From: Patescibacteria group bacterium
GTDB lineage: Bacteria; Patescibacteriota; Patescibacteriia; Patescibacteriales; UBA12465
Assembly (NCBI GenBank): GCA_021734135.1
Contig: JAIPJO010000001.1
Span: forward strand, 1-58,766
DNA: 58,766 nt
Direction: 5' to 3'
In this document: one piece after another, positions 7,898 to 58,766 of the stretch
Position numbering within the stretch: the first letter of the stretch is position 1
How the letters are laid out: each line of letters begins with the position of its first letter
Notes under the pieces: generated by a model
Seen by the model: only the letters and a program-made list of their open reading frames with translations
The model's database searches: none
Told to the model about the DNA's origin: nothing
Program-made: the position numbers and the translations under genes

Positions 7898-7950
7898 CTT
7901 TTATTATAAAATAGCAATATTTAAGTAAAAAGTAAATAATAGAATATATT

Positions 7951-7980
7951 AAAAATAACCACTTGGAAGTGGTTATTTTA
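7951..7980 (-). terminator. Hairpin plus U-tract between the two tRNA genes
   Basis: Minus-strand sense is aaaataaccacttccaagtggttattttt, a 9-bp stem followed by a U run. Confidence 0.45.
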
Positions 7981-7985
7981 TCGTG

Positions 7986-8058
7986 TGCGCCTAGATGGAT
8001 TTGAACCATCGACCCCTGCTTTATAAGAGCAGTGCTCTAACCCCTGAGCTATAGGCGC
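7986..8058 (-). tRNA. tRNA-Ile (anticodon UAU)
   Basis: Hand-folded cloverleaf: acceptor GCGCCUA/UAGGCGC, D arm GCUC/GAGC, anticodon stem CUGCU/AGCAG with loop CUUAUAA (positions 34-36 = UAU), T arm GAUGG-UUCAAAU-CCAUC. CCA is not encoded. Confidence 0.85.
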
Positions 8059-24701: not shown

Positions 24702-24746
<45 letters not shown>

Positions 24747-25159
24747 TATTCCTTTGAGTTTTAAGCTTGCGCTCGTACTCCCCAGGCGGGATGCTTAACG
24801 GGTTACCTTAAATTAACAGCACTGAAAGGGTCGATACTTCCAATGCTTAGCATCCAGCGTTTACGGCGTGGACTACGAGGGTATCTAATCCTCTTCGCTC
24901 CCCACGCTTTCGTCCTTGAACGTCAGGCGCGTTCTAGCAAGCTGCCTTCGCATTTGGCGTTCCTGCTGATATTAACGGATTTAACCCCTACACCAGCAAT
25001 TCCGCTTGCCTCTACCGGCCTCTAGTCTATTCATCTCTCCCGCAGCCTCCAGGTTGAGCCTGAAGATTTAACAGGAGATGCAACAGACCGCCTACGGACC
25101 CTTTACGCCCAATAAATCCGGATAACGCTTGGGGCCCTCGTATTACCGCTGCTGCTGGC

Positions 25160-26055
25160 CAATTAACTAAATAATTGTTGTTGGACTATATCTTCATCCT
25201 TTTAAAGGATGCTCGGCGTGTTATAGCAGTGTTAATTTTCTTTTAATAAAGAAGTAATGCTATCTCTCCACTTAAGGATCAGTCTCTGAAGGGTTAATTA
25301 TAACGGAGGAATTTTATGATTGAAACATTCAAGTATATAAGGTTGGATTGTAGATAAAAATTTATTTATACCTTCTTTACCTATATATAATCTTGGATAT
25401 CTCTTTCCTCTGCATAATGGATTTTGCACTGTTGAAAAAATTTGAAAATTTTTCTTAAGAGCAATACTTAATAAGCTTGCTTCTCTTAACGAAAAGCAAT
25501 TTACACTTAAACTAAAAGCAAAATGATCTTTTGGTCTCCAATCTAATGTTCCGTCATCCATATACCAAATGGCTAAGGATAAAGGATCATTTAATAACTC
25601 TGAAATAATTGAGGGAATTATTTTTTTATCTTTGGGATAAAAAATATTTCTTAGCTCCGTTAATTCAGTAGTATATCTTGTTCCAAAAAACCATTGACTA
25701 CCGTCTTTACGTTTATTGGGAGGGCTTTTACATAAATTATTTAATTCATTGTAAAGCCAAAATACATATGTTTTGTATTTTTGACATTGCTTTATTTGAA
25801 TTCTAGTGCCTTTATAGCCGTTGAATTCTAAATGCGCATCGCCAAGAATACCACCAATAATAATAGCTTTTTGCTTTTTGGTAAGTTTAAATTCCATTAT
25901 ACTATTATAACAACTTCCCTGCTGATTGTCTAACTACTAAGCAACAGATTATTGCAGTTAGAGTTTCCAGCATATAAGCCAAGTATTCATCTTAATGTTA
26001 CCACTAAGAGTCGCGCTTCGTTGTAATACAAGATTGTTGCTAACTTTTTATGTTC
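25160..26055 (-). mobile_element. Group I intron in the 16S rRNA at E. coli position 516/517, carrying a homing endonuclease gene
   Basis: The exons rejoin to ...CUAACCUCGU|GCCAGCAGCAGCGGUAAUAC. The 5' exon ends in U and the intron ends in G. Core R-like element CUUCAGAGACUGA (25281-25293) and S element AAGAUAUAGUCC (25183-25194). Candidate guide sequence GCGA pairs with exon UCGU. Confidence 0.85.
25298..25897 (-). CDS. LAGLIDADG homing endonuclease (double-motif), intron-encoded
   Basis: 199 aa. Motif 1 IIIGGILGDAHL and motif 2 LAIWYMDDGTL. The ORF lies wholly inside the 16S insertion, and its stop is 4 nt upstream of the R element. Confidence 0.85.
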   Translation of the reverse strand: MEFKLTKKQKAIIIGGILGDAHLEFNGYKGTRIQIKQCQKYKTYVFWLYNELNNLCKSPPNKRKDGSQWFFGTRYTTELTELRNIFYPKDKKIIPSIISELLNDPLSLAIWYMDDGTLDWRPKDHFAFSLSVNCFSLREASLLSIALKKNFQIFSTVQNPLCRGKRYPRLYIGKEGINKFLSTIQPYILECFNHKIPPL

Positions 26056-26488
26056 ACGAGGTTAGCAGCCCCTTATTCATTAGGTACAGTCATTAGTTCT
26101 TCCCTAATAAAAGCAGTTTACACTCCGAAAAGCGTCTTCCTGCACGCGACGTCGCTCCTTCAGCCTTGCGGCCATTGAGGAATATTCGTGACTGCAGCCT
26201 CCCGTAGGAGTCTGGGCAGTGTCTCAGTCCCAGTGAGGCGGGTCATGCTCTCACACCCGCTATCCGTCATTGCCTTGGTAAGCTATTACCTTACCAACAA
26301 GCTGATAGACCATAGACCCCTCTTGAAGCACCGGAGTTTTAAATAAAGAACTTAAGTTCTTTATTACTATCGGGTATTACTCTCGCTTTCGCAAGGTTAT
26401 CCCCGTCTTCAAGGTAGGTTATCAATGTGTTACTCTCCCGTTTGCCAAGCTAGTAAACTAGCTTTCGACTTGCATGCCTTAGCCACGT

Positions 26489-26523
<35 letters not shown>

Positions 26524-30542: not shown

Positions 30543-33500
30543 ATGACTACAAAAAATACAGACAAAAATACAGAGCAAGAACCTCAGGATGAGGGGATTA
30601 AAAAAAATGATGAAAATGAGTTAACTGCTTATGGTTTAATTAAAAACCAGTCTTTAGTAGATGAAATGAGTCAATCATATCTTGATTATGCTATGAGTGT
30701 CATTGTTTCTCGTGCCTTACCGGATGTGAGAGATGGTTTAAAACCAGTTCACAGACGTATATTATATGCGATGTGGAGCATTGGTTTAAAATCAACTGCT
30801 AAGTTTAGAAAATCAGCCACTGTAGTTGGTGAGGTTTTAGGTAAATATCATCCTCATGGAGATAGTGCTGTATATGATTCAATGGTTAGAATGGCGCAAG
30901 ATTTTTCTATGCGTTATCAATTGGTTAATGGACAGGGTAATTTTGGTTCAATGGATGGAGATAGCCCGGCAGCTATGAGATACTGTGTTACTGGTGATAC
31001 TTTAATTTTAAGTAATAAAGGAATTTTACCTATTGAAAAGATTTCAAATAAAATAGAAGAGAAAATTAATTTAAATATTTTAAATTATCAAGGTAAAGTT
31101 AAAAAAGCAGATAGGTTTTTTAATTCAGGTAAACATAAAATTAGACAGGTTGTTACTGAGCAGGGTTATCAAATTAAAGGATCTTTGAATCATCCTTTAA
31201 TGGTTTGGTCTCAAGATGAGTTTAGTAGACCTGCTATTTCTTGGAAAATTTTGGCAGATCTTAGAGAAGAAGACACAGTTTTGATTAATAGAAATTTTTC
31301 TCTTTTTTCTAAAATTAATACTAATTTAGAAAAATATTACTTACCTTTAAAAAAGAAACAAACTAAAGTAGTTTTACCTAAAACTATGAATAAGGACTTA
31401 GCTTTTTTGCTAGGAGCTTTAGTTTCTGAGGGTAGTTATCATAAAGGGCAAATATTATTTTGTAATTCTGATAAAGTTTTTTATGATAAAGTAAAAAATA
31501 TAATTTTAAAACAATTTAAAGGAGTTAAATTGTATGAAAGAGATATACAAGGTGGTTGTCGTGAATTAAGCTTATACCATCAGCAAGCGGTTAATTTTTT
31601 AGAGAGCATAGGGTTATCATTTAAGCGTTCTGATAAAAAAGAAATACCTTTTACAGTTCTTGAGTCTAAGAAAGAAATAATCTCATCATTTATACAAGCC
31701 TTATTTGAAGGTGATGGTTCTGTAATTTACAAAAAAGATAAAAGACATGATGGTGAGTCTATTGAACTTACTTATAATAGTAAAAGTGAGAAATTAATTG
31801 AGCAATTAAAAACAACTTTACTTGGTTTTCAAATTATAACGACTAATCCTTATCAAGATAAAAGAAATTCTTGTTATAAATTAATTATTTCTGGAGTTGA
31901 AAGTATTAATAATTTTTATAAGCAAATTAATTTTTATTCTCAGCGTAAAAAAGAGGTTTTAACTAATATTGAAAATATTAATAATACTCGTTTAAGTAAA
32001 ACTGATTATATACCTTATATTAGTGAGTATTTAAGAAAAAATTATAATCAAAGTTTTTTAAAGAAAAATAATTTTGATCGTTACTCTAAATTAGAAAAAA
32101 ACTATTCACAATTAGTAAAAATATTAAAGCCAGCTGATAAAGAAATAATAGATTGGTTATTAAAACATAAGTTTTTCTTTAATAAAATAAAAACTATTAC
32201 AGATCTTAAAAACAAAGAAACAGTTTATTCTGTAAGGGTAGATAGTAATTGCCATTCATTTATTGCCAACGGTTTTGTTAATCATAATACAGAAGCTAAG
32301 CTACAAAATATTTCTGATGAACTTTTAATTGATATAGAAAAGAAAACAGTTGATTTTCGTCCTAACTTTGATGGTTCTCATGATGAACCTAGTGTTTTAC
32401 CAGCTAAACTACCTAACCTACTTTTAAACGGTACTATGGGTATTGCTGTAGGTATGGCTACAAATATTCCTCCTCATAATTTACATGAATTATCACAAGC
32501 TATAATACACTTAATTGAAAATCCTGAAGCTAGCATTGAAGATCTAACTGCTTTTGTTAAAGGACCAGATTTTCCTACTGGTGGAATTATTTATAATCAA
32601 AAAGATATTGCTCAGGCCTATGCTACTGGTAAAGGTGGAATTGTGGTAAGGGGTAAGGCGGAAATTGTTGAGAATAAAGCTAATGATTTTAAAATTATTA
32701 TCACAGAAATTCCTTATCAAGTAAATAAAGCTAATTTAGTAACGAAAATTGCTGAATTAGTTAAAGATAAAAAGATTGATAGTATTAAAGATTTAAGAGA
32801 TGAATCTGATAAAGATGGTGTTAGAGTAGTTATTGATCTTAAAAAAGATGCTTATCCTAAAAAGGTGTTAAACACTTTATATAAAAATACACAACTTCAA
32901 GAAACTTTTCATGTTAATATGTTAGCTTTAATAGATGGCTTGCAACCAAAAGTGCTTACATTAAAAATGATACTTGAAGAATATATTAAGCATCGTTTGG
33001 AAGTAGTTAGAAGAAGAACTCAGTTTGATTTGGATAAAGCTAAGGATAGAGCCCATATCTTAGAAGGTCTTGTTATTGCTTTAAAAAATATTGATGAAGT
33101 TATTAAAACTATTAAAGCTTCAAAAGATAAAGAAGTAGCGAAGTTAAGTTTAATTAAAAAGTTTAAACTTTCAGAGCGTCAAGCAGTAGCCATTCTAGAA
33201 ATGAAATTGCAGAATTTAGCAAATCTGGAAGGAAAGAAGATAGAAGATGAATTAAAAGAAAAACAAAAATTAATTAAAGAATTAGAAAGTATTTTAGGGT
33301 CTAAAACTAAGATGAGAAATATTATTAAACAAGAAGTGGTAGACCTTGAAAAGAAATATGGAGACGAAAGAAGAACTAAAGTTGTAAGTAGAGGAATAAA
33401 AGACTTTAATATTGAAGATTTAGTACCAAATGAAGAAACCATGATCATGATGACTAAAGATGGTTATATTAAAAGACTTGATCCTAGTAATTTTAAAGTT

Positions 33501-34376
33501 CAGGCTAGAGGTGGAAAAGGTGTTATTGGTTTAAGCACTAAAGAAGAGGATTTGGTACAATTTATGTTTACCACTAATACTCATAGTGACCTCCTTTTCT
33601 TTACTACAAAAGGTAGAGTTTTTCAATTAAAATCATATGAAATTCCCCAGGCCTCTAGAACTGCTAAAGGTACAGCTATAGTTAATTTTTTACAACTCAT
33701 GAGCAATGAGCAAGTTACTTCAATATTACCTTTAGATAAAATTTCTAATCAAAAATATCTATTCTTTACTACTGAAAAAGGTATAGTTAAAAAAGTTTCT
33801 TTAGATTCCTTTGCTAATGTTAGAAGGTCAGGACTTATAGCTATTAAGATTAAAAATGAAGATAGACTTATTTGGGCTAAACCAACTAGTGGTGACGATG
33901 AAGTAATATTGATTACAGCTAATGGACAAGCTATTAGATTTAAAGAAAAAGATGTTAGAGAAATGGGAAGATCTGCAGCCGGCGTTTATGGAATGCGCTT
34001 AAAGAAGGATGATAAAGTTATTGGCATGGGAGTAGCTAATCAAAAAGCAATTAAAGAAAAAGATTATCAAGTAATGACTATTATGGCTAATGGTTTTGGT
34101 AAAAGAACAGCTTTTGATCTGTATAAAATTCAAAAAAGAGGTGGCTCTGGCATTAAAACTGCTAAAGTTACAAACAAGACTGGTCTTATAGTCAATGCTT
34201 ATTTAATGGATTACAAGATTATGAAAGAAAAAGATATTGTTGCCATTTCAGCTAAAGGTCAAGTAATTCGTTTATCCTTTGCTTCTATTAATAAAACAGG
34301 TAGAGATACGCAAGGAGTGAAACTTATGAGATTAAAAAATGATAATGATAGTGTTGCTGGGGTAACTTGGGTATAA
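30543..34376 (+). CDS. gyrA: DNA gyrase subunit A, interrupted by an intein
   Basis: 1277 aa. Extein motifs: [46 protein letters not shown]|...|TEAKL, and C-terminal beta-pinwheel repeats. About 842 aa remain after removing the intein. Confidence 0.95.
30984..32288 (+). mobile_element. GyrA intein (435 aa) with LAGLIDADG homing-endonuclease domain
   Basis: Starts with Cys ([10 protein letters not shown]) directly after the active-site Tyr. Block B SLNHPL. LAGLIDADG motifs [14 protein letters not shown] and [12 protein letters not shown]. Ends ...GFVNHN, followed by Thr (+1). Confidence 0.9.
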
Positions 34377-40756: not shown

Positions 40757-40784
40757 TATTTAATTGATAATAAAATATATAACT

Positions 40785-43742
40785 ATGAAAGTAGATTTTT
40801 CTCATTTAAATAAAGAACAAAGACAAGCAATAGAACATGAAAATGGTCCTTTGCTTTTAGTGGCTGGAGCTGGTACTGGTAAAACATCAGTGCTTATTAG
40901 TAGGATGATTTATTTAATGAATGAGAAAAAAGTTAATACTGAAGAAATATTACTTTTAACCTTTACGGAAAAAGCAGCAGCTGAAATGGAAGAAAGAGCT
41001 TTAGAAGCTTTACCTTATGGTTATTTTGATTTGTGGATTAGTACTTTTCATAGTTTTTGCGAAAGAGTTCTTAGAGATCATGGTTTAGAGATTGGTTTAC
41101 CAATAGATTTTGAATTGTTAACTCAAACACAGCAATGGATTTTTATTTATAATAATTTAAATAAATTTGAGCTCGATTATTATAAGCCACTTGGTAATTC
41201 AACTAAGTTCATTCAAGAGTTAATTAAACACTTTTCAAGATTAAAAGATGAAGAGATTTCTCCACAAAACTATCTTGATTATGCTGAAAGTTTAGAACTT
41301 AATAAGGATAATAGTTTAAACAATGAGGAGGCTAAAGAACAAGAACAAGAAATAGCACGTTATAAAGAGTTAGCTAATGCATATTATACTTATAATCAAT
41401 TACTTCTTGATAATTCTTATTTAGATTTTGGAGATTTAATTACTTATACTTTAAAACTTTTTAAAGAAAGACCTCATATACTTAATAAATATCAAAATAA
41501 GTTTAAGCAAGTAATGGTTGATGAGTTTCAAGACACTAATTGGGCTCAATATGAATTAATCAAATTACTTATTAAGTCTCACCAAAACCTTACTGTAGTG
41601 GGAGATGATGATCAAAGTATATATCGTTTTCGTGGTTCTTCGATTTTTAATATTATGCAGTTTAAAGATGATTTTCCTACAGCTAAACAAATAGTTTTAA
41701 CTAAGAACTATCGTTCAGGACAAAAAATACTAGATAAAGCTTATGAACTTGTTAAACATAATAATCCTAATCGTTTAGAAGAAAAAATTAATGTTAACAA
41801 AGAATTAAAGGCGCAAAAACCAATAGATGCAAAAGTAGAACATTGGCATTTGCAAAATGAAGAGTCAGAAACTACTTTTGTTAGAGAAAAAATAGAAACT
41901 ATATATAAAACTAATAAAAACAGTAAATGGTCTGACTTTGCTATCTTAGTTAGAGCTAATGATGCAGCGGACAAGTTTGTTAAAGAATTAAATCGTCATG
42001 GCATTCCTAATCAATTTGTTTCTTTAAAAGGTTTGTATTTTAAGCCTTTAATATTAAATGCTATAGCATACTTTAAACTTTTAGATAATTATCATGAATC
42101 TTCAGCTTTGTTTAGAGTGTTAAACTTTGATTATTTTTCTTTACCATATAAAGATATTTTAGAATTAAATAAATTAGCTAGAAGAAAGACCTGGTCATTA
42201 TATGAAGCTTTAGAAAATATTCATATTTTAAATGATTTAGATAGTGAGTCATATAAAAAAATTAATGAACTTCTTAGTTTAATTAAGAAGCATAGTGAAA
42301 TGGCTAAAAAGGAAAATCCTAGTAAGATATTTTTAGAATATGTAAAAGCTTTTGCAATTACTAAAAAATTAGATCAAGATAGGGACAAGGAAAAATTTTC
42401 TTGGTTGAATCAGTTTTATAAGAAAATAAAAGAATTTGAAAGTGCTGATAAAGAAGCTAAATTAAAAGATTTTGTTAACTATTTAAATTTAGAACTTGAA
42501 GCTGGAGAAAGTGGTTCTTTGTTTTTAGAATTTGAAGATCCTGAAGTAGTTAAAATAATGACAGTACATTCTGCTAAGGGTTTAGAATTTAATTATGTTT
42601 TTGTTTGTAATTTGGTTGATAAACGTTTTCCTACTATTTCTAGAACAGATAAAATAACAATTCCGGATGATTTAATTAAAGAGAAAGTTGAATCAGATAA
42701 AGATTTTCACGTAGAAGAGGAAAGAAGATTATTTTATGTAGCTATTACTAGAGCTAAGGAAAGTCTTTATTTAACCAGCGCTAAAGATTATGGTGGTAAG
42801 TTAGAAAAAAAGCCCTCACTTTTTCTTGAGGAAATGAATTTAAATGCTAAAGAAAAATTTAGTGCTGATTATCAAGCTTTAAATGAATTGGAAAAAGATT
42901 TATACAAGGAAGAAGCAAAAAGTTTAAGCAAGACAAACAAAAGTCAACTCAGTTTACCTAACAAATTTTCTTTTTCACAATTAGAGTCATACAGCAAATG
43001 TCCTTGGCAGTATCGTTATGCTTTTATACTTAAAGTTCCTGCTCCTGAAAAAGCTAGTCTATCTTTTGGTAGATCCTTACATAACACTTTATATCAATTT
43101 ATGTACCCATTGTTAGAAATAGGCCAAGCTCAAACTAGTTTATTTGCAGAAACTAAAAAAAGAAAAGAGGAGATTACAAGTCAGATAAATTTAGATAGAT
43201 TAATGGATTTATATAATGATTACTGGCAAGAAGGAGGTTATGAAAGCAAAAAAGAAAAAGAAGCGTATTATAAAAAGGGTAAAGAATCATTAATTAATTT
43301 CTATAATAATTTATTAGAAGAAAAAAATGTAAGACCAGTGATGTTGGAGAAAAATTTTGTTTTGAAAGTTGGTCAAGATTCAATTAAAGGTGCTATTGAT
43401 AGAGTGGATAAATTAGAAGATGGCACAGTGGAAGTAATCGATTATAAAACAGGTAGAGTTAAAGATAAGTTGGATACTAAAGATAAAAGACAATTAATGA
43501 TATATCAACTAGCACTGGAAAACGTTTTACATCTTAAAGTATCAAAATTAAGTTATTATTTTTTAGACAAAGAAGGTCACAAACTTTCTTTTTCAGCTAC
43601 AGATAAACAGTTAGAAAAATTACAAGAACAATTACAAGAAGAAATAGAGCAAATTAAATCAATGAATTTCGCCCCCACCCCTAGCCCTCAAAAATGTTCT
43701 TATTGTGATTTTAATAGTATTTGTGAGTTTAGAAAATTTTAG
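40785..43742 (+). CDS. UvrD/PcrA-type SF1 helicase fused to a C-terminal PD-(D/E)xK nuclease with a Cas4/AddB-like four-Cys cluster
   Basis: Walker A GAGTGKTS, DEFQDT, VGDDDQSIYRFRG, TVHSAKGLEF. C-terminus has SKCPWQYRY ... IDRVD ... DYKTG ... CSYCDFNSIC. I prefer the ATG at 40785 over the TTG at 40764. Confidence 0.8.
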   Translation: MKVDFSHLNKEQRQAIEHENGPLLLVAGAGTGKTSVLISRMIYLMNEKKVNTEEILLLTFTEKAAAEMEERALEALPYGYFDLWISTFHSFCERVLRDHGLEIGLPIDFELLTQTQQWIFIYNNLNKFELDYYKPLGNSTKFIQELIKHFSRLKDEEISPQNYLDYAESLELNKDNSLNNEEAKEQEQEIARYKELANAYYTYNQLLLDNSYLDFGDLITYTLKLFKERPHILNKYQNKFKQVMVDEFQDTNWAQYELIKLLIKSHQNLTVVGDDDQSIYRFRGSSIFNIMQFKDDFPTAKQIVLTKNYRSGQKILDKAYELVKHNNPNRLEEKINVNKELKAQKPIDAKVEHWHLQNEESETTFVREKIETIYKTNKNSKWSDFAILVRANDAADKFVKELNRHGIPNQFVSLKGLYFKPLILNAIAYFKLLDNYHESSALFRVLNFDYFSLPYKDILELNKLARRKTWSLYEALENIHILNDLDSESYKKINELLSLIKKHSEMAKKENPSKIFLEYVKAFAITKKLDQDRDKEKFSWLNQFYKKIKEFESADKEAKLKDFVNYLNLELEAGESGSLFLEFEDPEVVKIMTVHSAKGLEFNYVFVCNLVDKRFPTISRTDKITIPDDLIKEKVESDKDFHVEEERRLFYVAITRAKESLYLTSAKDYGGKLEKKPSLFLEEMNLNAKEKFSADYQALNELEKDLYKEEAKSLSKTNKSQLSLPNKFSFSQLESYSKCPWQYRYAFILKVPAPEKASLSFGRSLHNTLYQFMYPLLEIGQAQTSLFAETKKRKEEITSQINLDRLMDLYNDYWQEGGYESKKEKEAYYKKGKESLINFYNNLLEEKNVRPVMLEKNFVLKVGQDSIKGAIDRVDKLEDGTVEVIDYKTGRVKDKLDTKDKRQLMIYQLALENVLHLKVSKLSYYFLDKEGHKLSFSATDKQLEKLQEQLQEEIEQIKSMNFAPTPSPQKCSYCDFNSICEFRKF

Positions 43743-49679: not shown

Positions 49680-52331
49680 ATGAAATTTAAATTTTTCATT
49701 TTCATATTTGGACTAGCAGTATTAGGTTTTGTTTTTTTTGCATCTCCAGTATCAGCTTTAGATACTGGTGTTAATGCTGTGAACAATTCAATCGAATTAT
49801 CACAAGAAGATCCTAGAACTGTGGTGGGTAGAATTATTAATATAGCTATATTGTTTTTAGGTGTTATTGCGGTAGGTATTATAATTATTGCTGGTTTCAA
49901 ATGGATGATGGCTGGAGGAGATGAAGAGAAAATTAATAGTGCTAAAAAACTATTAAAAAATGGAGTTATTGGTTTAGTTATAGTTTTATCCTCTTGGGGT
50001 ATAGCTACTTTTATTTTAAACAGATTATTGGGCGCTACTGATAATGGTGGTATAAACATGGGCACAGATGATGGTAATAGTGGTATAATAGGGTCTGGTG
50101 CTATTGGTTCATGTTCAGTGCAAAGTGTGTATCCTGAACCCTCACAGAAAGATGTAGCTAGAAATACAGCCATACTTATAGAATTTAAAGAAGAATTAAA
50201 TTTAGAAACTTTTTGTTTAGATACTAATGGAGATGGTGATTACTGCAATAGTGGTGATAAAATAAATCCTGAAAATATACATATATATGAGCAAAACAAT
50301 GGAGATGCTTGTGATGATGGAGATTGTAATAATAATATAACAGATGTTTATGCTACAGTTTCTGATAATGGCTTATCTTTTGCTTTAGCGCCAGCTAATC
50401 ATTTGGGTTCATCAGATTCAAAAACTTGGCATACAGTCTATTTGTCAAATGCTATAGAAAAAGCTGATCAAGGTAATATATTTGATAATTGTAGCACTGA
50501 TTATTTAGAGTGGAGTTTTGAAGTGGGTACTTTTTTAGATTTAACACCTCCTCAGGTAACTAGTGTTTTTCCAGCACCTGATAATGGCAAAGATAGTGTT
50601 AGTAGTACTAGTTATCAGGCGGCTACTGGCAGTATTACAGTTTTAGGTGAATTAGATACTTATACTTCAGCTAGTGTTGATAGTGTTGTTAAAAATGATG
50701 AAGGTGAAGGTGCTAATTGGGACGAGGCTAGTGCTGAAATTTCTGAAGATTACCATCAACAAATCGAAATTTTTACTGTTCAAGTTACAAATGGAGGTTC
50801 TCAAGCTGCATTATATGATAATAATAGTAATTTGGTAGCGCAAGGTGTTTTTAATAATAATGAAGTAGTTTTTGATAATTATTTTACTCTTACCGTTAGT
50901 GGTGATACTTATTCAGATGGTAGTTCTTGGTTAGTTAATGTTACACCCGAAGTGTTAGCAGATTCTTTAACTGTTGGTTCTCAAACTTATGTTGTAAGTG
51001 AAGATGAAGGTGCTAATAAAATTGAACTTAGTAGTGATGTTAATGAACAAGCTCAAAATATTTATATTACTTTAAGTGGACATCCTAATGTAGAAGCTTC
51101 ACATGATGGCGATACAATTAATTTAGAGGCAAAAGTTCAAGGTGAAGAGGGTAATAATATTATTTTAAATAGTTCAGCTACTAATTTAGATATTACTTCA
51201 ATGTCTGGAGGTGTAACAGGGCAAGAGATACAAAATACTGATGATAAAAAAGATCAACCTCGTAATTCAATTATACAAATTAATTTTAATGAAGCTATAA
51301 ATCCAGCTACAATCTCTGGCTCTGCTTCTAATATTTCTAATTTTCTAAGGATTATTAATTTTAAAAATGGCGCATCTAATTCCGGTAATACTTGTGTAGA
51401 TGATAGTGATTGCTTGTCATATAATTGTAATGAAAATATTTGTGAAGGTGATTATTTAGATGGTAATTTTGTGGTTTCTAATCAATTTAAAACAGTAGAA
51501 TTTATTTCTAATAACGAATGTGGTGTTAATGGCTGTGGTGAAACTATTTATTGTCTTCCTGGCTCTAGCAATCTAGCAGTGGTTTTAGTAGCTTCTGATT
51601 TGAAGAGTTGTGCTAGTGATAATGATTGTGTTTCTCATTCTCCATTTAATAATTGTGAAGATACTGGATTAGATGATAATGTTTGTCAAGATGATGAAGG
51701 TAGTAATTATCCCGCTAGTGATCCAGGTGATGGATTAACTGGTATTTTAGATGCAGCCCTTAATTCTTTAGACGGAAATAGTGATGGTGTGGCTGATGGG
51801 CCTTTAAGTTTTTACTATGAAAACATTGAAACTAGTGAAGGTAAAGATAATTATATGTGGAGCTTTTATATTAACGATAATATTGAAATTTCTGCACCTA
51901 AAATAAATACTATTAGTCCTGAACTTGACGATGAAGGTGTAAATTTAGATGATCCAGTGGTGGTAGAATTTGATAAATTAATGAGTAGTACTTCCTTAAA
52001 AAGTGGTAGTACAATAATTAAACAAGGTGATAAAGAATATGAGCATCAATTAATTAATCTTAGAGGTTCTAGCCCATATGGTTTGGGTTATTGGATTAAT
52101 ACCGAAAATACAGATATAGCTCCTTTAGACGGACAAGCAGATGTCACTTCCGCTATTATTAAGCATTCATTATTTAGTGATGCTTTAACTCATATTGCAG
52201 AAGTTGGTTCTGGAGTAAGAGATATATATCAAAATTGTTATAAACCAAGCAGTGGTCCTGATTGTGTTGCTAGTGATTTAAATCCAAGTTGTTGCTCTGG
52301 TGTAGCTAGTGAAAATTGTGATAATAATTAA
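49680..52331 (+). CDS. Large surface protein: signal peptide, VirB2/TrbC-pilin-like two-helix module, then Ig-like (SbsA/Big_5-type) and Cys-rich ectodomain
   Basis: 883 aa. SP ...ASPVSA|LD. Helix-loop-helix VVGRIINIAILFLGVIAVGIIIIAGFKWMM-GGDEEKINSAKKLLKNG-VIGLVIVLSSWGIATF. Repeated P-x-(D/N)-x-x-x-V-x-x-x-x-x-I-x-I-x-F segments (e.g. QPRNSIIQINFNEAINPATI). Cys clusters. Confidence 0.75.
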   Translation: MKFKFFIFIFGLAVLGFVFFASPVSALDTGVNAVNNSIELSQEDPRTVVGRIINIAILFLGVIAVGIIIIAGFKWMMAGGDEEKINSAKKLLKNGVIGLVIVLSSWGIATFILNRLLGATDNGGINMGTDDGNSGIIGSGAIGSCSVQSVYPEPSQKDVARNTAILIEFKEELNLETFCLDTNGDGDYCNSGDKINPENIHIYEQNNGDACDDGDCNNNITDVYATVSDNGLSFALAPANHLGSSDSKTWHTVYLSNAIEKADQGNIFDNCSTDYLEWSFEVGTFLDLTPPQVTSVFPAPDNGKDSVSSTSYQAATGSITVLGELDTYTSASVDSVVKNDEGEGANWDEASAEISEDYHQQIEIFTVQVTNGGSQAALYDNNSNLVAQGVFNNNEVVFDNYFTLTVSGDTYSDGSSWLVNVTPEVLADSLTVGSQTYVVSEDEGANKIELSSDVNEQAQNIYITLSGHPNVEASHDGDTINLEAKVQGEEGNNIILNSSATNLDITSMSGGVTGQEIQNTDDKKDQPRNSIIQINFNEAINPATISGSASNISNFLRIINFKNGASNSGNTCVDDSDCLSYNCNENICEGDYLDGNFVVSNQFKTVEFISNNECGVNGCGETIYCLPGSSNLAVVLVASDLKSCASDNDCVSHSPFNNCEDTGLDDNVCQDDEGSNYPASDPGDGLTGILDAALNSLDGNSDGVADGPLSFYYENIETSEGKDNYMWSFYINDNIEISAPKINTISPELDDEGVNLDDPVVVEFDKLMSSTSLKSGSTIIKQGDKEYEHQLINLRGSSPYGLGYWINTENTDIAPLDGQADVTSAIIKHSLFSDALTHIAEVGSGVRDIYQNCYKPSSGPDCVASDLNPSCCSGVASENCDNN
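49755..50015 (+). repeat. Copy 1 of a ~260-nt direct repeat encoding the pilin-like module
   Basis: By eye roughly 85-90% identical to 52424-52690, with identical runs of about 35-45 nt (e.g. taatagtgctaaaaaactattaaaaaatggagttattggttta). Confidence 0.8.
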
Positions 52332-52342
52332 TAAAAAGCACA

Positions 52343-55300
52343 ATGTTTAAGCGAAAAATTCATATATTAATATTACTAATTATAGCTTTAGCTTTATTTT
52401 TAGTACCAGCTGAAACTGTGGAAGCTTTAGATACTGGTGTTAATGCTGTAAATAACAGTGTTGAATTGGGACAAGAAGACCCTAGAACTGTGGTAGGTAG
52501 GATTATTAATATAGCCATATTATTTTTAGGTATTATTGCGGTAGGTATTATAATTATTGCTGGTTTTAAGTGGATGATGGCAGAAGGAGAAGAGGAAAAG
52601 GTTAATAGTGCTAAAAAACTATTAAAAAATGGAGTTATTGGTTTAATTATAGTTTTATCTTCTTGGGGTATAGCTACTTTTGTTTTATCAAGAGTAATGA
52701 ACTCTACTGGTAATTCTAACCCATCAAATACAGGATGTAGTGATGGTGAAGTAATTGAGTGTGGTTGTGGTGGAACTAGAGTTTGCATTGATGGTTCTTG
52801 GGGGCTTTGTGTTGGCTCTGATTGTAGTTCTGATAGTAATAAATCTTGTGATGGAAACACTTTAACTGATGTTTGTAATCAAGATAATAGTATTTGTGAT
52901 GATAATTCATTTTGTAATCAAGATTGTTTTTGTGAAGAGCTAGGAGGAATTGGTGATGCTTGCGAGGCTGATATTCAAAGTGAAGAAGGTGTTTGTAGTC
53001 AACCAAGTGATGAAATGTGTGGAAATTATTTGACCTGTGATGCGGATACTTGTACTTGCCAAGGTTCACCTGTAATTACATCAATTAGTCCTTATGGAGG
53101 GTTTTGTGAAAATGATGTTAATTCTCCATGTGTTCAAGATTCAGATTGTGGCACTGAAGGAGAAGTTTGTAATTTAGAAACACCAAATGGTGCCAGTGGT
53201 AATTTAATTAGCATACACGGACATAATTTTTCAACTAGCACAGAACTTATATTTCTTGGTGATTTAAATAATGAAAATGATAATACTTTGGCTGTTGATC
53301 CTAATCAAGTAAATTCAAATTGTAGTGGAGTTCTAAGTGATAATTTAATTATTGCAGTAGTTCCAAGTGGAGCTAATTCAGGACCTATTGCAGTAAGGAG
53401 TATTGATGATAATTTATCTGATAATACTTATAACGATTTAGGTCCATATATAGATGATTTTGTAATTAATAATATTGAACGACCTGGACTTTGTACTTTA
53501 GATCCTAAGCAAGGCGTCTTAACTGATGAGATACAATATCAAGGTTTGAGATTAAATTCTAGTGATGCTTATTTTGGAACTTATAATCAAAAATCTAGAG
53601 GTCTAAGTTCTAGTTTTTCTCAAACTAGTGGTACAAGTTTGGTTCCTAATATTCAAGAGGGGAAAATGACAACTTTCGTTATTAAAGATTTTAGTGGATT
53701 TCCGGTAAAAAGTAATTATCTTGATTTTACTAAAGAACCTGAGGCTGATGCAGGTCCATATATTACTTCTTTGTCACCAGAAATTGGAGCTCCAGGTCAG
53801 TATGTTACTATTACAGGTTCTGGTTTTGGAAATGTTAGAGGTTTTAATCAAGTACTTTTTGGTAATTATGAAGCTAGTTATGATTTCCCTAGTGTTTGTC
53901 AGTCTTCAGTTTGGACTGATAAAGAAGTGATTGTAAAAGTGCCTGAAAATGCTGAAGATGGTACTTATGCTATTAACATGGAAATAGATGAATGGGAAAT
54001 TAATTCTAATGAAGCTAATCCTAATGCCTTTATTGTAGATAGTAGTCAAAATTTAAAACCTAGTTTATGTAAAATTGAACCAATTAGAGGGCCTACAAAT
54101 TCTCCGGTAACTTTATATGGAGAATATTTTGGTGAAATAAATACGCAAGCTATAGTTGATTTTTATTATAATAAAAGAGAAAATTCAGAAATTTTAGCTG
54201 AAAATGATTATTTATATTTAGAAACTCAAGTTCCTCAAAATGCTAGTACTGGACCTGTTAAGGTAATAAAAGATTCTGAAGCAGGTAATTCTTTGGATTT
54301 TTCTGTTGAACAATGTGAAGTTAATGATGATTGTGGTAATCAAATATGTTGTCCTGCAGGAACATACAAAGAAGGAAGATGTGAGAATGAAGGTACTAAT
54401 AGTATTTATGAGAATTGTTATGTAGATATTCCTAGTTCAATGTATCAATGGAATTTTAGTACTGGTTGGGAAAATCCTGATAATTATTATAGTTGTGAAG
54501 GAATGGCTAAGGCTATGGGAGCTTGTCAGGTAGATGAGTTTTGCCCTAATTCACCTGGAAAGTGTTCTATATATCCTGGAGGTGGTCAAACTGTCTCTAG
54601 TGAGTGTGATTACAGCTGTGACTCTTATCCTGGTTGTGAAGATGAAAATAATTGTCTTTATAATGATGGTTTAGATAAATGTGTGCTTGAGGGTAGTAGT
54701 TGTTATTTATCAGAACAAATTTCATATAGTTTAGGAGATGAAACATATTATACTTATCAAACTTGCCAAGAATATGAAGGAGAAAATGGAACTGCTAATC
54801 GTTTACATATTAATGTAGATAGTTCTTGTCCTGAGAATTGGACTAATATTGGTGATGGTGTTTGTGTTAATGAAAATGAAACATGTTCAGTTTGTGAGGA
54901 TGATAATTTGAGCTGTGTTAATAATGGTCAAGGTGGTGGTGTTTGCGCTACTGATACTATTTGTGATAATGGTGCAATTTGTACTTCTGATGATGTTTGT
55001 GTAATAGATGATGAGGCTACTTGTGAATGTTGTTGTGAGATTGGTGAAGATGAAAGGGATTGTTGTGCACCTTTAAATTGTGATAATTCTTGTGGTAGTG
55101 ATAGAGAGGGTGAAGATACTGATACTTATGGTTATTGTTCGGGTTGTGCCTTTGCTGGAGGTACTCAAGCGGAACAAGATGAAGCTTGTAATTGTTTTCA
55201 TACTAGTGGTAAGTTTTGTGATGTCAGTGAATACTCTGAAGGTATTTGTGTAGATTGTGAAGAATTATCAACACCAGAGCTTTGTAACGCACATGTCGGT

Positions 55301-57844
55301 AGTTGCTGTTATGATGGAGAAAATGATACTTGTAGAGGCATTGATGAAGGTGGAGTTGTTGAGGACACAGATAGTGATTTTACTGGCTATTGTGCTTATT
55401 ATGATTGTAATCAAACTAGTGGAGAATGTAATGTTGGTAATCCTAGTCATGAAGGAGATTATAGTAATCCTTCAACTTGTGAAGAAAATTGTGCTAGTGA
55501 GGACCCTTGTTTAGGTTTAGATGCAACTACTTGTGCAAATAATAGTGATTGTTGTTTTGATGTTAATGGAGTAGATGTAGAAGATGGAGAATGTAGATCA
55601 GGTGAGGATATGGGCGGTGAAGGAGATGATGCATCTTATTGTGCTTATTATAATTGTCAAGAAAATAATAATCTATGTGATTTAGGTAATCCTAATCCTA
55701 ATTTTGAATATGAGGATAAGTTAACATGTCAAGATAATTGTGAAAAAGATCCTTCTAATTTAGGGGCTAGTTGTTCTAGTGAGGAAGAAGGTATTTGTGA
55801 TACTTTTATTTGTGGATCACCTTTTGCTTGTTTAGCGCAAGATGGTAGTGGTGGCAGTAGTAGTGATTGTGGTTTTTGTTGTTGTAATCCTGATAATATT
55901 AATGATGATCCTGAAGCTCCTGATTATGATAGTTGTTTAGATATTAATAGTAATTTAAATTGTGAAGCTAATAGAACTCCTTGTGATGGAGAAAATAGGG
56001 GTTTATGTTGTGGTTGTAGTGCTGATAGTGAATGTGGTGATGAGGGTTTAGTGGGTTGTGGTCTTGATACTTGCTGTAGAAATAGACCACAAGTTGATAC
56101 AGATAAAGGTGTAAATCCTAGTAATATGCAGTCTGATGTATGTAGAAATGTCTTAATTACTGTTCCTTTTGATCAAAAAATGGATAGAACTAGTTTTAAT
56201 AATAATTTAGTTTTACTTGCAGAATATGATTATGGAAGTACTTGTCCTGCAGGTACATTTTTAGCTAATAAAGATTTAGAGGCACCTAAATTTGTGTGGT
56301 GGAAAAAAATAAAATCAAATATTAGTAAAACTTTAAGTCCAATTTTGGCTAGACTAAATTTAAATAGTGCTAGTAGTGCTTTAGCTGAGTGGAATTCTGT
56401 GCCTACTGAAAATGATTTATATTGTTTAGTCCCTGGTACTGTTAGTTATGAAAATAGTCCTAATGGAAATACTACTTTAACTTATTCTTCAAACAAAGTG
56501 CTTGATGCTGATACAGTACATTATGCAATTGTTAAAGGTGATGAAAACCTTGATAGTAATACTGGTGTGAAAAGCTATCAAGATATAGGAATGAATGGTG
56601 AAGGTCTTTGGAGTATTAATGATTCTGGATATATTGAGGGAGAAAATCTTAGTTTTAATGGTATCAATTATCCTAATGCATATATCTGGAAATTTGAGAC
56701 TTTAGATGATCAGGGAGATGATCCAGGTATTTGTAAGGTTGATTATGTAAGAACAGAACCTGATTCATATTTATTTAGTACTACTCAAAATAGTTTAATA
56801 GAAGATGATACTAATCCTGCTGATAATAGTTATGATACGATAAAAGATAGAGATAAAGAATATCATGCTAAAGCTTTTAGTAGCAATGGTCAAAGATTAG
56901 CTAGAACAAGTCAGTATGATTGGGATTGGAATTGGTATATAGATAATATTGATGTGGTTAAATTTATTAATCAAAACTCATCTCAATTTACAGTTTCTAA
57001 TAATAAACAGTTAATAGGTACAGCTGATAATGTTAGTGACGGACAAACATTTGTAAAAGCTACTGTAGACATGAGTAGTTATACTAACAATATTACCAGT
57101 GATGGTGATGGGACTTCTCATGCTGTGCCAGCTTATGTGTTTATTTGTAATAATCCTTGGCCTGCTCCAGATCCAAATACTAATGCTTGGAGTCCTTGGA
57201 TGGATAATTCTCAAAATTGTTTACCGGGTGAGGAATGTGATAGTTATAATTATAATTTTTATTACTGCAGAGATGCGGGTGAAGAAGGAACTCATGATGA
57301 CCTACCAGCTATTATTGATGAAGATGCTGTAATTAGAGGTTCTAGCAAGGTTTGCTCAGATGGTAGTGGTCCTTGTTCTAATGATAGTGATTGTGGAGGC
57401 GCTCAATGTATTTGGGATGTTTTAAAAGAGTCATATTTCTTTAGAGAAAAAGTTCCAGGCATTGGTACAATCTCAGAAGTAGATGATTTAGAAACAGGTG
57501 GTACTTTAAAAGTTTCTTGGTCTTCAGATTCTTATTTAGTTAATAATTACATTTTATATTACAGAGATAAACAAAGTCAGACCTATAGTTTTGCAGAAGT
57601 AGAATTAGATGATAGTTCTAATCCTGATAATCCTAATGCTGGACAAGCTTGTAATGAGCTTGGAGGTGAATATATTTGTAATTATGTAATAAATAATTTA
57701 GAAAATAATAAAACATATTATTTTAAAATAAGTGCTGTTACTAATACAGGAGCAGAAAGTCCTTTATCTAATCAAGTTGTTGGAATACCTACTGATAAAC
57801 AAGCTCCTACAACTCCAATGGGTTTAGGCGCTGAAAGTAATTAA
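52343..57844 (+). CDS. Giant surface protein: same pilin-like N-terminal module, three IPT/TIG-like domains, ~600-aa cysteine-rich region, Ig-like region, C-terminal FN3
   Basis: 1833 aa. SP ...AETVEA|LD. IPT-like starts SPVITSISPYGG, GPYITSLSPEIGAPGQYVTITGSGFG, PSLCKIEPIRGPTNSPVTLYGEYFG. FN3-like end (LKVSWSS...YYFKISAVTNTGAESPLS). Confidence 0.8.
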   Translation: MFKRKIHILILLIIALALFLVPAETVEALDTGVNAVNNSVELGQEDPRTVVGRIINIAILFLGIIAVGIIIIAGFKWMMAEGEEEKVNSAKKLLKNGVIGLIIVLSSWGIATFVLSRVMNSTGNSNPSNTGCSDGEVIECGCGGTRVCIDGSWGLCVGSDCSSDSNKSCDGNTLTDVCNQDNSICDDNSFCNQDCFCEELGGIGDACEADIQSEEGVCSQPSDEMCGNYLTCDADTCTCQGSPVITSISPYGGFCENDVNSPCVQDSDCGTEGEVCNLETPNGASGNLISIHGHNFSTSTELIFLGDLNNENDNTLAVDPNQVNSNCSGVLSDNLIIAVVPSGANSGPIAVRSIDDNLSDNTYNDLGPYIDDFVINNIERPGLCTLDPKQGVLTDEIQYQGLRLNSSDAYFGTYNQKSRGLSSSFSQTSGTSLVPNIQEGKMTTFVIKDFSGFPVKSNYLDFTKEPEADAGPYITSLSPEIGAPGQYVTITGSGFGNVRGFNQVLFGNYEASYDFPSVCQSSVWTDKEVIVKVPENAEDGTYAINMEIDEWEINSNEANPNAFIVDSSQNLKPSLCKIEPIRGPTNSPVTLYGEYFGEINTQAIVDFYYNKRENSEILAENDYLYLETQVPQNASTGPVKVIKDSEAGNSLDFSVEQCEVNDDCGNQICCPAGTYKEGRCENEGTNSIYENCYVDIPSSMYQWNFSTGWENPDNYYSCEGMAKAMGACQVDEFCPNSPGKCSIYPGGGQTVSSECDYSCDSYPGCEDENNCLYNDGLDKCVLEGSSCYLSEQISYSLGDETYYTYQTCQEYEGENGTANRLHINVDSSCPENWTNIGDGVCVNENETCSVCEDDNLSCVNNGQGGGVCATDTICDNGAICTSDDVCVIDDEATCECCCEIGEDERDCCAPLNCDNSCGSDREGEDTDTYGYCSGCAFAGGTQAEQDEACNCFHTSGKFCDVSEYSEGICVDCEELSTPELCNAHVGSCCYDGENDTCRGIDEGGVVEDTDSDFTGYCAYYDCNQTSGECNVGNPSHEGDYSNPSTCEENCASEDPCLGLDATTCANNSDCCFDVNGVDVEDGECRSGEDMGGEGDDASYCAYYNCQENNNLCDLGNPNPNFEYEDKLTCQDNCEKDPSNLGASCSSEEEGICDTFICGSPFACLAQDGSGGSSSDCGFCCCNPDNINDDPEAPDYDSCLDINSNLNCEANRTPCDGENRGLCCGCSADSECGDEGLVGCGLDTCCRNRPQVDTDKGVNPSNMQSDVCRNVLITVPFDQKMDRTSFNNNLVLLAEYDYGSTCPAGTFLANKDLEAPKFVWWKKIKSNISKTLSPILARLNLNSASSALAEWNSVPTENDLYCLVPGTVSYENSPNGNTTLTYSSNKVLDADTVHYAIVKGDENLDSNTGVKSYQDIGMNGEGLWSINDSGYIEGENLSFNGINYPNAYIWKFETLDDQGDDPGICKVDYVRTEPDSYLFSTTQNSLIEDDTNPADNSYDTIKDRDKEYHAKAFSSNGQRLARTSQYDWDWNWYIDNIDVVKFINQNSSQFTVSNNKQLIGTADNVSDGQTFVKATVDMSSYTNNITSDGDGTSHAVPAYVFICNNPWPAPDPNTNAWSPWMDNSQNCLPGEECDSYNYNFYYCRDAGEEGTHDDLPAIIDEDAVIRGSSKVCSDGSGPCSNDSDCGGAQCIWDVLKESYFFREKVPGIGTISEVDDLETGGTLKVSWSSDSYLVNNYILYYRDKQSQTYSFAEVELDDSSNPDNPNAGQACNELGGEYICNYVINNLENNKTYYFKISAVTNTGAESPLSNQVVGIPTDKQAPTTPMGLGAESN
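52424..52690 (+). repeat. Copy 2 of the direct repeat encoding the pilin-like module
   Basis: See 49755-50015. Confidence 0.8.
55283..55760 (+). repeat. Two tandem 249-nt (83-aa) cysteine-rich modules inside the giant gene
   Basis: Module 1 has C..CCYDG...CRG...GYCAYYDCNQTSGECNVGNPSHEGDYSNPSTCEENC. Module 2 has C..CCFDV...CRS...SYCAYYNCQENNNLCDLGNPNPNFEYEDKLTCQDNC. tgtgcttatta recurs at 55391 and 55640. Confidence 0.75.
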
Positions 57845-57847
57845 TAT

Positions 57848-58540
57848 ATGAAAAAGAAAATATATAAAAGTTATTTAATATTATCTTTAGCTATTTTAAG
57901 TATTTTAGTTATAAGTTTTTTTGCTTTTTCTAATTTAGAAAACATTGATAATGATAATTTGGGTTTTCAAGCTGTTTGGGCACAGGATGGTGAGACTATA
58001 AAGTTTACTTGGGCTGAAAACAGTGATGAAGATGTTTCTTCGTACAAACTTTATCATGGTGTAAACAGTGGACAATATGGAGAGTCTTTAAAAACAGAGG
58101 GATCTAATAATTTCTTAGTTTTAGATGTTAGTGATTTTAGTGAGGATAAACATTATTTTGCGGTATCAGCTCTTGATAAAGCAGGTAATGAGAGTAATAA
58201 ATCTACTGAATTAGTTATAGATTTAAGTATTGATGTAAGTAATGAAGATGTTGATACTTGTGGTAACGGTATAGTTGAAACAGATAGAGGAGAGATATGT
58301 GATTCTAATGGTCGCTTATGTGAAGCAGGTTCTGGCTATTTAGGAGAGATGTATTGTAAAAATGATTGTTCTGGTTATCTTTCTACTTGTATAGCTATAG
58401 AAAGATGTGGAGATGGTATTATAAATGGTAATGAAGAATGTGAAGGTACAAATACTGATATTGTTTGCACTGATGGTGTAGATTTAGGTACTTTAACTTG
58501 TAATAATTGTCAGATTGGTAGTTGTGATATTGGTAATTAA
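57848..58540 (+). CDS. Membrane-anchored FN3 protein with C-terminal CGxG(I/V)-type cysteine-rich repeats
   Basis: 230 aa. Signal-anchor helix, FN3-like domain (IKFTWAEN...YFAVSALDKAGNES), then CGNGIVETDRGEICD and CGDGIINGNEECEG repeats. Start is 3 nt after the giant gene's stop. Confidence 0.7.
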   Translation: MKKKIYKSYLILSLAILSILVISFFAFSNLENIDNDNLGFQAVWAQDGETIKFTWAENSDEDVSSYKLYHGVNSGQYGESLKTEGSNNFLVLDVSDFSEDKHYFAVSALDKAGNESNKSTELVIDLSIDVSNEDVDTCGNGIVETDRGEICDSNGRLCEAGSGYLGEMYCKNDCSGYLSTCIAIERCGDGIINGNEECEGTNTDIVCTDGVDLGTLTCNNCQIGSCDIGN

Positions 58541-58696
58541 ATTTGTGCTAATGATTTTGTAGTAAAACAAATAGTTGTTCTAAATGATTATAGTAGTTGT
58601 GTAAATTAGATGATATATAATTTAAAATAAGTTACAGTCTAGAATCTAACGCAACACCCTTGGCACTTAGTGCTAAAGGTGATATATTAGATTTCT

Positions 58697-58766
58697 ATGA
58701 AAAATTATAAAAGATTAAGTTCTTTTGAGCGAGAAGAGATTAGCAGAATGCTGGCTCAAAAGCATT
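58697..58766 (+). mobile_element. Start of an IS30-family-like transposase gene (truncated by the window edge)
   Basis: MKNYKRLSSFEREEISRMLAQKH resembles the N-terminal HTH (Y-K-x-L-x-x-E-E-R-x-x-I) of IS30 transposases. Only 23 codons are visible. Confidence 0.4.

Follow-up and report, generated by a model that had tools for sequence, protein, structure and literature searches.

Near the 3′ end of the window (the whole stretch of DNA analysed here, a 58,766-bp contig deposited under 'Patescibacteria group bacterium'), three co-oriented genes encode proteins which we designate P1, P2 and P3. The first two open with a common N-terminal module which, judging by its sequence, is a genuine member of the VirB2-like pilin family of Patescibacteria, and continue into very large ectodomains; this fusion is an ancient, conserved gene pair, and is neither an artefact nor a one-off occurrence. 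We favor the explanation, to which we assign a probability of about one half, that P1 and P2 are a conserved pair of 'modular' VirB2-type pilins, docked to the pilin pool or to the pilus machinery in a surface contact apparatus. A role in host attachment is plausible, with the ectodomains as candidate adhesins. Open reading frame (ORF) calls agree exactly with the sequence-only reading that singled out this locus, which gave 883, 1833 and 230 amino acids (aa), a common orientation, and gaps of 11 and 3 nucleotides (nt) between the genes.

Hydropathy plots reveal exactly three hydrophobic segments each in P1 and P2, namely the signal peptide (approximately aa 5-25), helix 1 (approximately 45-80) and helix 2 (approximately 95-116), while the AlphaFold2 (AF2) model of the module contains helices at positions 2-20, 45-77 and 82-119/121, followed by a disordered linker (118-133) with a pLDDT of 33. 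Both methods thus agree that the two proteins begin with the same succession of signal peptide, helix, charged loop and helix, as had been proposed from the sequence. The inter-helix loop (AGGDEEKINSAKKLLKNG) is short and of mixed charge, with four K+R and three to four D+E residues. When scored alone, the module yields 47.7 (P1) and 44.9 (P2) bits with the Pfam family PF18895 (T4SS_pilin; cutoff 26.6), and the whole proteins yield 43 and 39.7 bits; the NCBIfam family NF045849, 'pilin-like conjugal transfer protein' (cutoff 40), is matched at 40.3 and 41.5 bits by the module alone, and falls below the cutoff with whole proteins (35.4 and 35.5). Stand-alone pilins have 23 columns with a conservation of at least 85%; in 22 of these, their most frequent residue is also that of the P1 and P2 families, the exception being K74, which is often L, and the conservation profiles of the fused modules and the stand-alone pilins are correlated (rho 0.65-0.71). 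In both P1 and P2, the pilin module is the best-conserved block (0.63-0.64 versus 0.29-0.62 elsewhere). Neither protein has the small size of a stand-alone pilin (about 110-190 aa), as P1 and P2 extend for approximately 765 and 1715 aa past the module. They also differ from type IV pilins, having no G↓F(T/S)L(I/L)E site, and two helices after a Sec-type leader rather than a single N-terminal helix.

The mature modules of P1 and P2 are 91% identical at the protein level; the first 135-137 or so codons, however, share only 76% identity in DNA, indicating that the likeness of the modules is held by selection, and is not due to recent gene conversion or to duplication in the assembly. In other clades the P1 and P2 modules are 60-70% identical to each other, and P1 modules group with those of P1 orthologs, which, together with the DNA divergence, rules out recent gene conversion as the cause of the 91% identity. 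A mild within-genome excess can nevertheless be seen, the median P1/P2 module identity being 67% within a genome versus 60-62% for orthologous modules across genomes. The two genes are not a recent duplication; they are an ancient syntenic pair, which is present in approximately 80 species.

Searches with the full-length sequences gave lists of about 120 ortholog clusters per protein, out of 136 (P1) and 296 (P2) significant matches. P1 is represented by more than 100 full-length clusters, mostly of 860-930 aa and carrying PF18895 and Big_5, and P2 by at least 120 full-length clusters of 1800-2400 aa with PF18895, TIG and sometimes Big_5 or fn3. The N-terminal module is present in 238 of the 240 listed orthologs; for P2, precomputed Pfam annotation assigns PF18895 to nearly all of those listed, and BLAST finds the module in 120 out of 120. 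Members of the fusion family are labelled 'pilin', 'TrbC/VirB2 family protein' or 'IPT/TIG domain-containing protein' in the databases. A scan of one genome per GTDB species yielded 575 matching stretches, and the best 80 of these, among them two on complete chromosomes (CP066698.1 and OW818634.1), contain full-length P1 genes in metagenome-assembled genomes (MAGs) labelled Falkowbacteria, Parcubacteria or Patescibacteria. The census of the architecture thus bears out its wide occurrence, with more than 100 full-length clusters for each protein and a pair that is syntenic in approximately 80 GTDB species, mostly Falkowbacteria-like.

When ORFs were called and clustered over 84 loci, the upstream gene order proved to be conserved: UvrD-like helicase, RuvB, QueA or LexA in some cases, signal peptidase I, HisRS, bS21, and RelA/SpoT on the opposite strand, followed by P1. 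Of the 80 loci in which a downstream gene could be called, 65 have P2 directly after P1, and RelA/SpoT, HisRS and signal peptidase I always adjoin. A subclade of 10 loci (L040, L043, L056, L062, L066, L068-L070, L075 and L076) has P1 only: its P1 genes, which are shorter and code for 830-894 aa, are followed by RecA and housekeeping genes, and P2 is absent at that position. One MAG, ERP113451_co4_182, harbors two separate P1-P2 loci (L010 and L036) on different contigs, which could be either a real duplication or a mixture of strains. The idea that the locus belongs to a mobile element with a conjugation adhesin, or stems from an error in assembly or gene calling, draws on the Pfam and NCBIfam names, which refer to conjugation pilins, and on the end of the contig just past gene 3. 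It is scarcely credible in view of the same RuvB, signal peptidase I, HisRS, bS21 and RelA synteny in approximately 80 species from independent assemblies, the lack of relaxase, integrase or VirB4 genes in the window, and the continuous ORFs with more than 200 ortholog clusters, so that synteny and census effectively refute it.

In relatives, P2 is followed by a signal-peptide-containing, Cys-rich protein of about 1050 aa with He_PIG/PKD Ig-like domains, which in the closest relatives of the window also includes VWA, then by a protein of about 108 aa with one transmembrane segment, and by membrane proteins of 250-350 aa with TSP3 repeats. Only the beginning of a longer operon for surface proteins thus lies within the window. 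Its similarity to relatives ends after P3, and the position of their VWA/He_PIG gene (about 1100 aa), which is missing here, is occupied by the beginning of an unrelated ORF at the contig end (MKNYKRLSSFEREEISRMLAQKH...). A promoter-like site at 58660-58688 precedes this ORF, and scans for promoters and terminators gave matches no better than in shuffled sequence. An insertion element at 58541-58766 could be the cause of the contig break.

A search with the module alone retrieved 86 proteins, nearly all of them stand-alone pilins of 113-146 aa with 50-70% identity, the closest being about 126 aa long; such pilins stop 5-20 residues past helix 2. The family is very large, as the pilin profile produced 90,376 matches at E ≤ 1e-3 in a search of 1.84 billion cluster representatives. 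No stand-alone pilins were found within the window. In three genomes, six pilin genes stand in a syntenic tandem array that begins with the closest stand-alone relative; the array is flanked by SMC/SBP/HTH/methyltransferase genes and by PPDK/Lgt genes, with a seventh pilin approximately 4.5 kb upstream. Within one Falkowbacteria genome, the identity between this lead pilin and the fused modules amounts to 53%, while other members of the array show 30-45% identity to the fused modules and 24-44% to each other. The pilins SEML1_0014-0019 of Southlakia epibionticum, a cultured relative whose parasitic lifestyle depends on them, belong to the same Pfam family, PF18895; this six-pilin array, situated in a type IV secretion system (T4SS) cluster, was found to be essential by transposon sequencing (Tn-seq; PMC10633639). 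The top matches to the pilin profile (P0327-P0345 and others) are single polypeptides with 2-17 tandem PF18895 modules, such as P0334, with 17 PF18895 stretches over 1775 aa. They could be real poly-pilin genes, or arrays merged through stop-codon read-through or use of a wrong genetic code.

The P1 ectodomain carries three Big_5 stretches in Pfam, in agreement with the Ig-like repeats read from its sequence, and its AF2 model (mean pLDDT 87.5 for the protein, mostly above 90 in the ectodomain) is a chain of beta-sandwich domains. Twelve of its Cys residues are invariant among 108 sequences. Both ectodomains are strongly acidic, that of P1 having 122 D+E and 27 K+R residues. The best fold match of the P1 model in the PDB is the S-layer protein SbsC (E 2.5e-5, probability 0.96), with a TM-score of 0.11-0.13, indicating that the match reflects a generic multi-Ig rod; further matches, to alpha2-macroglobulin, cadherins and the archaeal S-layer of Nitrosopumilus, all have low TM-scores.

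In P2, three IPT/TIG domains had been proposed: two stretches are significant in Pfam, while the third TIG-like region is only weakly similar, the neighbors of the best copy being found at about aa 270-355 and 570-640. The Cys-rich stretch of about 600 aa is present, at a density of 1 in 8.2 over aa 701-1300 rather than the 1 in 7 first estimated, and there is a second Cys-rich block at aa 121-300; among 92 orthologs with a shared identity of approximately 40%, 116 of the 118 Cys residues of P2 reach a conservation of 90% or more. An FN3-like domain could be placed at aa 1718-1812, although its fn3 score (22.6 bits) is just under the cutoff of 25, and Pur_ac_phosph_N is likewise sub-threshold there (24.8 versus 30). 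In PDB sequence searches, the P2 ectodomain matched IPT-like domains of cyclodextrin glycosyltransferase alone, and the P1 ectodomain had no match. We rejected a paralogous origin of the two ectodomains, as they share a single Big_5-like start motif (E 0.001), leaving two different proteins behind the same module.

P3 consists of an N-terminal transmembrane segment, an FN3-like domain and two CGxG..EC repeats, just as had been described for it (TIGR02232 is sub-threshold, at 19.7 versus 20.8). Its orthologs are confined to L001, L002 and L006, which form the clade of the window, and the protein is 3′-shortened here (230 aa versus 332 aa in L002 and L006). Since its FN3 shares 45-50% identity with the last such domain in P2 orthologs of about 1940 aa, P3 looks like a clade-specific fission product of the last FN3 of P2, which would have gained its own membrane anchor.

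The large domains are very probably extracellular, as had been predicted: the Ig, TIG, FN3 and Cys-rich content requires such a location, the Cys residues are conserved, no further hydrophobic segment follows the module, and the beta-sandwich model is confident. The combination of a disulfide-rich Ig/TIG/FN3 content with a presumably cleaved leader leads us to propose an N-out, loop-in, C-out hairpin, which is the known topology of VirB2/TraA propilins. A motif search in P1 and P2 yielded no LPXTG-like motif, lipobox or type IV prepilin leader, with no Cys before aa 132-145, and the Pfam scan contained no SLH or CWB domain; the absence of LPXTG, lipobox, SLH and type IV leader had been correctly noted from the sequence.

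In the scheme that we favor, P1 and P2 would be exported by the Sec pathway and their signal peptide cut by signal peptidase I, after which the protein would enter the cytoplasmic membrane in the form of a helical hairpin whose two ends face outwards, similarly to a VirB2/TraA propilin, as family membership and ectodomain content suggest. Helix 2 would act as a signal-anchor, holding the disulfide-rich Ig/TIG/FN3 ectodomain of 750 or 1700 aa outside the cell via a flexible linker of about 15 aa. The hairpin would most likely dock these ectodomains onto the stand-alone pilin pool or its machinery, at the base or the tip, or else as thinly scattered minor subunits, and, together with the downstream secreted VWA/Ig and TSP3 proteins of relatives, they may form a core cell-surface contact apparatus of Falkowbacteria-like Patescibacteria. 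Pilin-type contacts are suggested by the retention of pilin features, by the closeness of the lead stand-alone pilin, and by the slight co-variation of P1 and P2 modules within genomes.

The hairpin might instead have been recruited as a mere two-helix membrane anchor, in which case P1, P2 and the downstream secreted proteins would form a constitutive structural coat or pseudo-periplasmic scaffold, apart from T4SS pili and host recognition. This is a serious alternative, though one that we consider somewhat unlikely. SbsC as the best fold match of P1, with the Nitrosopumilus S-layer also listed, would be in line with a coat, as would the acidity of the ectodomains, the constant length and even conservation over approximately 80 species, the housekeeping neighborhood devoid of T4SS genes, the retention of P1 at the 10 loci where P2 is absent, and the steric problem posed by domains of 750-1700 aa on filament subunits. 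On the other hand, the DPR motif and the GG-EEK-AKK loop lie outside the membrane core and are kept, though a passive anchor has no need of them; the SbsC TM-scores correspond to a generic Ig chain, there is no SLH or other wall-binding module in the Pfam scan, and P2 has 118 Cys, whereas S-layer proteins are usually Cys-poor. Because the residues of stand-alone pilins are kept and the module is the best-conserved block, the hairpin is probably more than a passive anchor.

Several observations weigh against the docking scheme and have to be set beside the above. The first concerns the tie of the module to classical VirB2, which is plausible and sub-threshold at the level of sequence. The stand-alone TrbC/VirB2-type signature initially claimed for the module holds for the VirB2-like family of Patescibacteria (PF18895 above its cutoff, NF045849 at it), but not for the classical family PF04956 (TrbC/VirB2), with 17.8 and 18.6 bits versus a cutoff of 27.9. 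In an hhalign comparison of the module profile with Agrobacterium tumefaciens VirB2, both helices were aligned, with a weak probability of 50% (E 1.6e-4); residues 46-90 of the VirB2 sequence used agree with the PDB alignment. A PDB profile search gave a non-significant match to VirB2 (8cue, E 1.8), phmmer detected no solved-structure relatives of the module, hhalign showed no relationship to the F-pilin TraA, and Foldseek with the AF2 hairpin returned generic helical hairpins and nothing specific, being uninformative, as expected, because there are two helices only. The second concerns the genomic context. The search for T4SS genes came back empty: no VirB4, VirB6, VirD4, relaxase, integrase or other T4SS gene was found among ORFs of at least 100 aa in the 58.7-kb window, none of the T4SS genes is located within 10 kb of the locus in relatives, and none of the six-pilin arrays is near virB4 in the three genomes. 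Finally, ectodomain conservation is even along both proteins, with constant length and no hypervariable segment, unlike typical host-range adhesins, a pattern that a core surface machine or a coat resembling an S-layer would explain as well as an adhesin would, and a domain of 750 to 1700 aa on every subunit would be sterically hard to accommodate in a VirB2-type helical filament.

The steric argument also bears on the notion of a self-polymerizing fiber, in which the hairpins of P1, P2 or both would form a homopolymeric VirB2-type filament with giant ectodomains over its entire surface. In its favor, the pilin module is intact, and F-type pilins expose their C-terminus on the outside of the pilus and accept short peptides fused to it. 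Nevertheless, the small surface area per subunit makes domains of this size sterically implausible, stand-alone pilins much like the module are present in the same genomes, and no assembly ATPase is found nearby, and we regard such a fiber as very improbable. Alternatively, the hairpin could be an export and sorting signal, with cleavage in the linker giving rise to a normal pilin and a free secreted protein. Such processing would echo the C-terminal trimming of classical TrbC and VirB2, and agrees with the position of the disordered, Gly/Asn/Ser-rich linker directly after helix 2 and with the ends of stand-alone pilins 5-20 aa past the module. However, the linker consensus is variable and has no evident conserved cleavage motif, no TraF-like peptidase was found nearby, and the upstream signal peptidase I sits in a housekeeping block, so that this kind of processing appears improbable. 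As for the docking scheme itself, its most far-reaching version, in which P1 and P2 would be the first modular VirB2-class pilins, co-assembling with the lead stand-alone pilin in a T4SS-type pilus or the tube-like conduit seen between epibiont and host and decorating or capping it with giant disulfide-rich adhesive domains, is doubtful.

Comparison with known systems places P1 and P2 closest to the stand-alone VirB2-like pilins of Patescibacteria (PF18895; PMC10633639, PMC12102498), with which they share the family, the signal peptide-helix-charged loop-helix layout, the signature residues, and 50-70% identity to the closest members. Those pilins, however, are 110-190 aa long, often form tandem arrays and are frequently near virB4, as opposed to a fixed two-gene pair with C-terminal ectodomains of 750 and 1700 aa in a housekeeping neighborhood without T4SS genes. 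The likeness to classical TrbC/VirB2/TraA pilins (PF04956; T-pilus 8cue, F-pilus) lies in the two-helix hairpin after a long leader, and the DP...G(F/I)xWM motif in helix 1 of the module aligns with A. tumefaciens VirB2, while the overall similarity is sub-threshold and none is seen to F-pilin. Classical pilins are C-terminally trimmed or cyclized, and we know of none that is fused to a large domain. The same design logic is found in Streptococcus sanguinis, whose modular type IV pilins PilB and PilC combine an N-terminal pilin module that enters the filament with a C-terminal adhesive module, VWA in PilB and a lectin in PilC. These pilins belong to an unrelated superfamily with a class III leader, a prepilin peptidase and a single N-terminal helix, whereas P1 and P2 have no such leader and their ectodomains are 5-10 times larger. 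S-layer Ig-chain proteins (SbsC, 4uic; Nitrosopumilus, 8c8m) resemble P1 and P2 in having serial Big_5-type Ig-like domains and in acidity, SbsC being the best match to the P1 fold, but the TM-scores are very low, and P1 and P2 lack SLH or wall-binding domains, are Cys-rich, and are anchored in the membrane by a pilin hairpin.

PrgB-type adhesins of Gram-positive conjugative T4SSs are likewise large surface proteins proposed to act in contact in monoderm T4SSs; they have no sequence match to P1 and P2, which are devoid of LPXTG, and PrgB homologs are reported to be absent from Patescibacteria (PMC12102498). In that survey of Patescibacteria T4SSs, in which PF18895 and PF04956 matches were both counted as VirB2, pilins occur in arrays of 2-11 and lie away from virB4 in many assemblies, and no PrgB-like adhesins were detected; an adhesin is therefore missing from the current picture. 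It makes no mention of pilin-ectodomain fusions (PMC12102498). Full-text searches, including the Southlakia Tn-seq paper and the T4SS review, found no paper on the fusion family, which thus appears to be undescribed, as the sequence-only reading had supposed, while stand-alone PF18895 pilins are already known. In related literature, PF18895 dominates freshwater-specific clusters in a structure-universe preprint, expressed 'T4SS pilin' proteins are listed in a metatranscriptome paper, and a tube of approximately 8.6 nm is seen to join a patescibacterium and its host in a cryo-electron tomography paper.

Table 1. Coordinates of the P1-P2-P3 locus in the window, and of the six-pilin arrays in their own loci
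Feature	Position	Strand	Description
Gene 1 (P1)	49680..52331	+	883 aa; MCF7794771.1, 'pilin'; pilin module and Ig-like (Big_5) chain
P1 Sec-type signal peptide, predicted cleavage	49680..49757	+	aa 1-26 (...SPVSA↓LD); hydrophobic peak aa 10-19; AF2 helix 2-20, then disorder; V-x-A at -3/-1
P1 mature VirB2-like pilin hairpin	49758..50027	+	aa 27-116; DPR motif, helix 1, GGDEEK..AKK loop, helix 2
P1 ectodomain	50079..52328	+	aa 134-883; acidic multi-beta-sandwich chain, conserved Cys-rich insert, C-terminal YQNC(F/Y)KPS motif
Gene 2 (P2)	52343..57844	+	1833 aa; MCF7794772.1, 'IPT/TIG domain-containing protein'; pilin module, then Cys-rich, IPT/TIG, Big_5-like and FN3
P2 signal peptide, predicted	52343..52426	+	aa 1-28 (...ETVEA↓LD); hydrophobic peak aa 10-21
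P2 mature VirB2-like pilin hairpin	52427..52696	+	aa 29-118
P2 best IPT/TIG domain	53756..53992	+	aa 472-550; Pfam TIG E 2.9e-13
P2 Cys-rich region	54263..56242	+	aa 641-1300; 79 Cys, 1 in 8.4
P2 C-terminal FN3-like domain	57494..57778	+	aa 1718-1812; sub-threshold Pfam scores
Gene 3 (P3)	57848..58540	+	230 aa; MCF7794773.1, 'hypothetical protein'; transmembrane anchor aa 4-33, FN3 aa 38-128, two Cys-rich acidic repeats
Start of unrelated ORF (MKNYKRLSSFEREEISRMLAQKH...)	58697..58766	+	runs off contig end; from translation of window tail
Six-pilin array, L005	10001-12552
Six-pilin array, L085	10001-12595
Six-pilin array, L086	10001-12472

The remainder of the contig has the character of a chromosome segment typical of the Candidate Phyla Radiation (CPR), with a GC content of approximately 28% and many aminoacyl-tRNA synthetases, TopA, Der and RuvB. 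The 16S rRNA gene (24156-26521, minus strand) is represented by two Rfam matches split by an insertion of approximately 670 nt (about 25322-25995), in which a LAGLIDADG_2 homing-endonuclease ORF at 25298-25897 marks a CPR-typical rRNA intron. GyrA (30543-34376, plus strand, 1277 aa) contains an intein with a LAGLIDADG_3 endonuclease domain. A match to the Rfam Clostridioides difficile sRNA n00280 (42687-42784, plus strand; 66 bits, gathering score 65.2) falls within the gene for the UvrD-like helicase (40764-43742), and is probably conserved coding sequence, since Rfam describes this family as contained in a helicase gene. At 7822-8058 on the minus strand, tRNA-Val(GAC) adjoins a tRNA-Ile with the anticodon TAT; the UAU anticodon for Ile is uncommon in bacteria, the usual alternative being a modified CAU.

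Patescibacteria constitute a large share of bacterial diversity and apparently live attached to other cells. The one species that is open to genetic manipulation cannot do without its T4SS and the accompanying array of VirB2-like pilins, but the pilus has not been linked to any adhesin. With a fusion kept in roughly 80 or more species, P1 and P2 are concrete candidates for coupling a conjugation-type pilin system to surface contact. If they do co-assemble with stand-alone pilins, they would be the adhesin still lacking for these T4SSs, and the pilus would be linked directly to contact with the host; otherwise, they may represent a new way for a monoderm cell to anchor its envelope proteins. 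In either case, anyone counting 'VirB2 homologs' by means of PF18895 also counts proteins of 900 and 1900 aa, which are no ordinary pilins.

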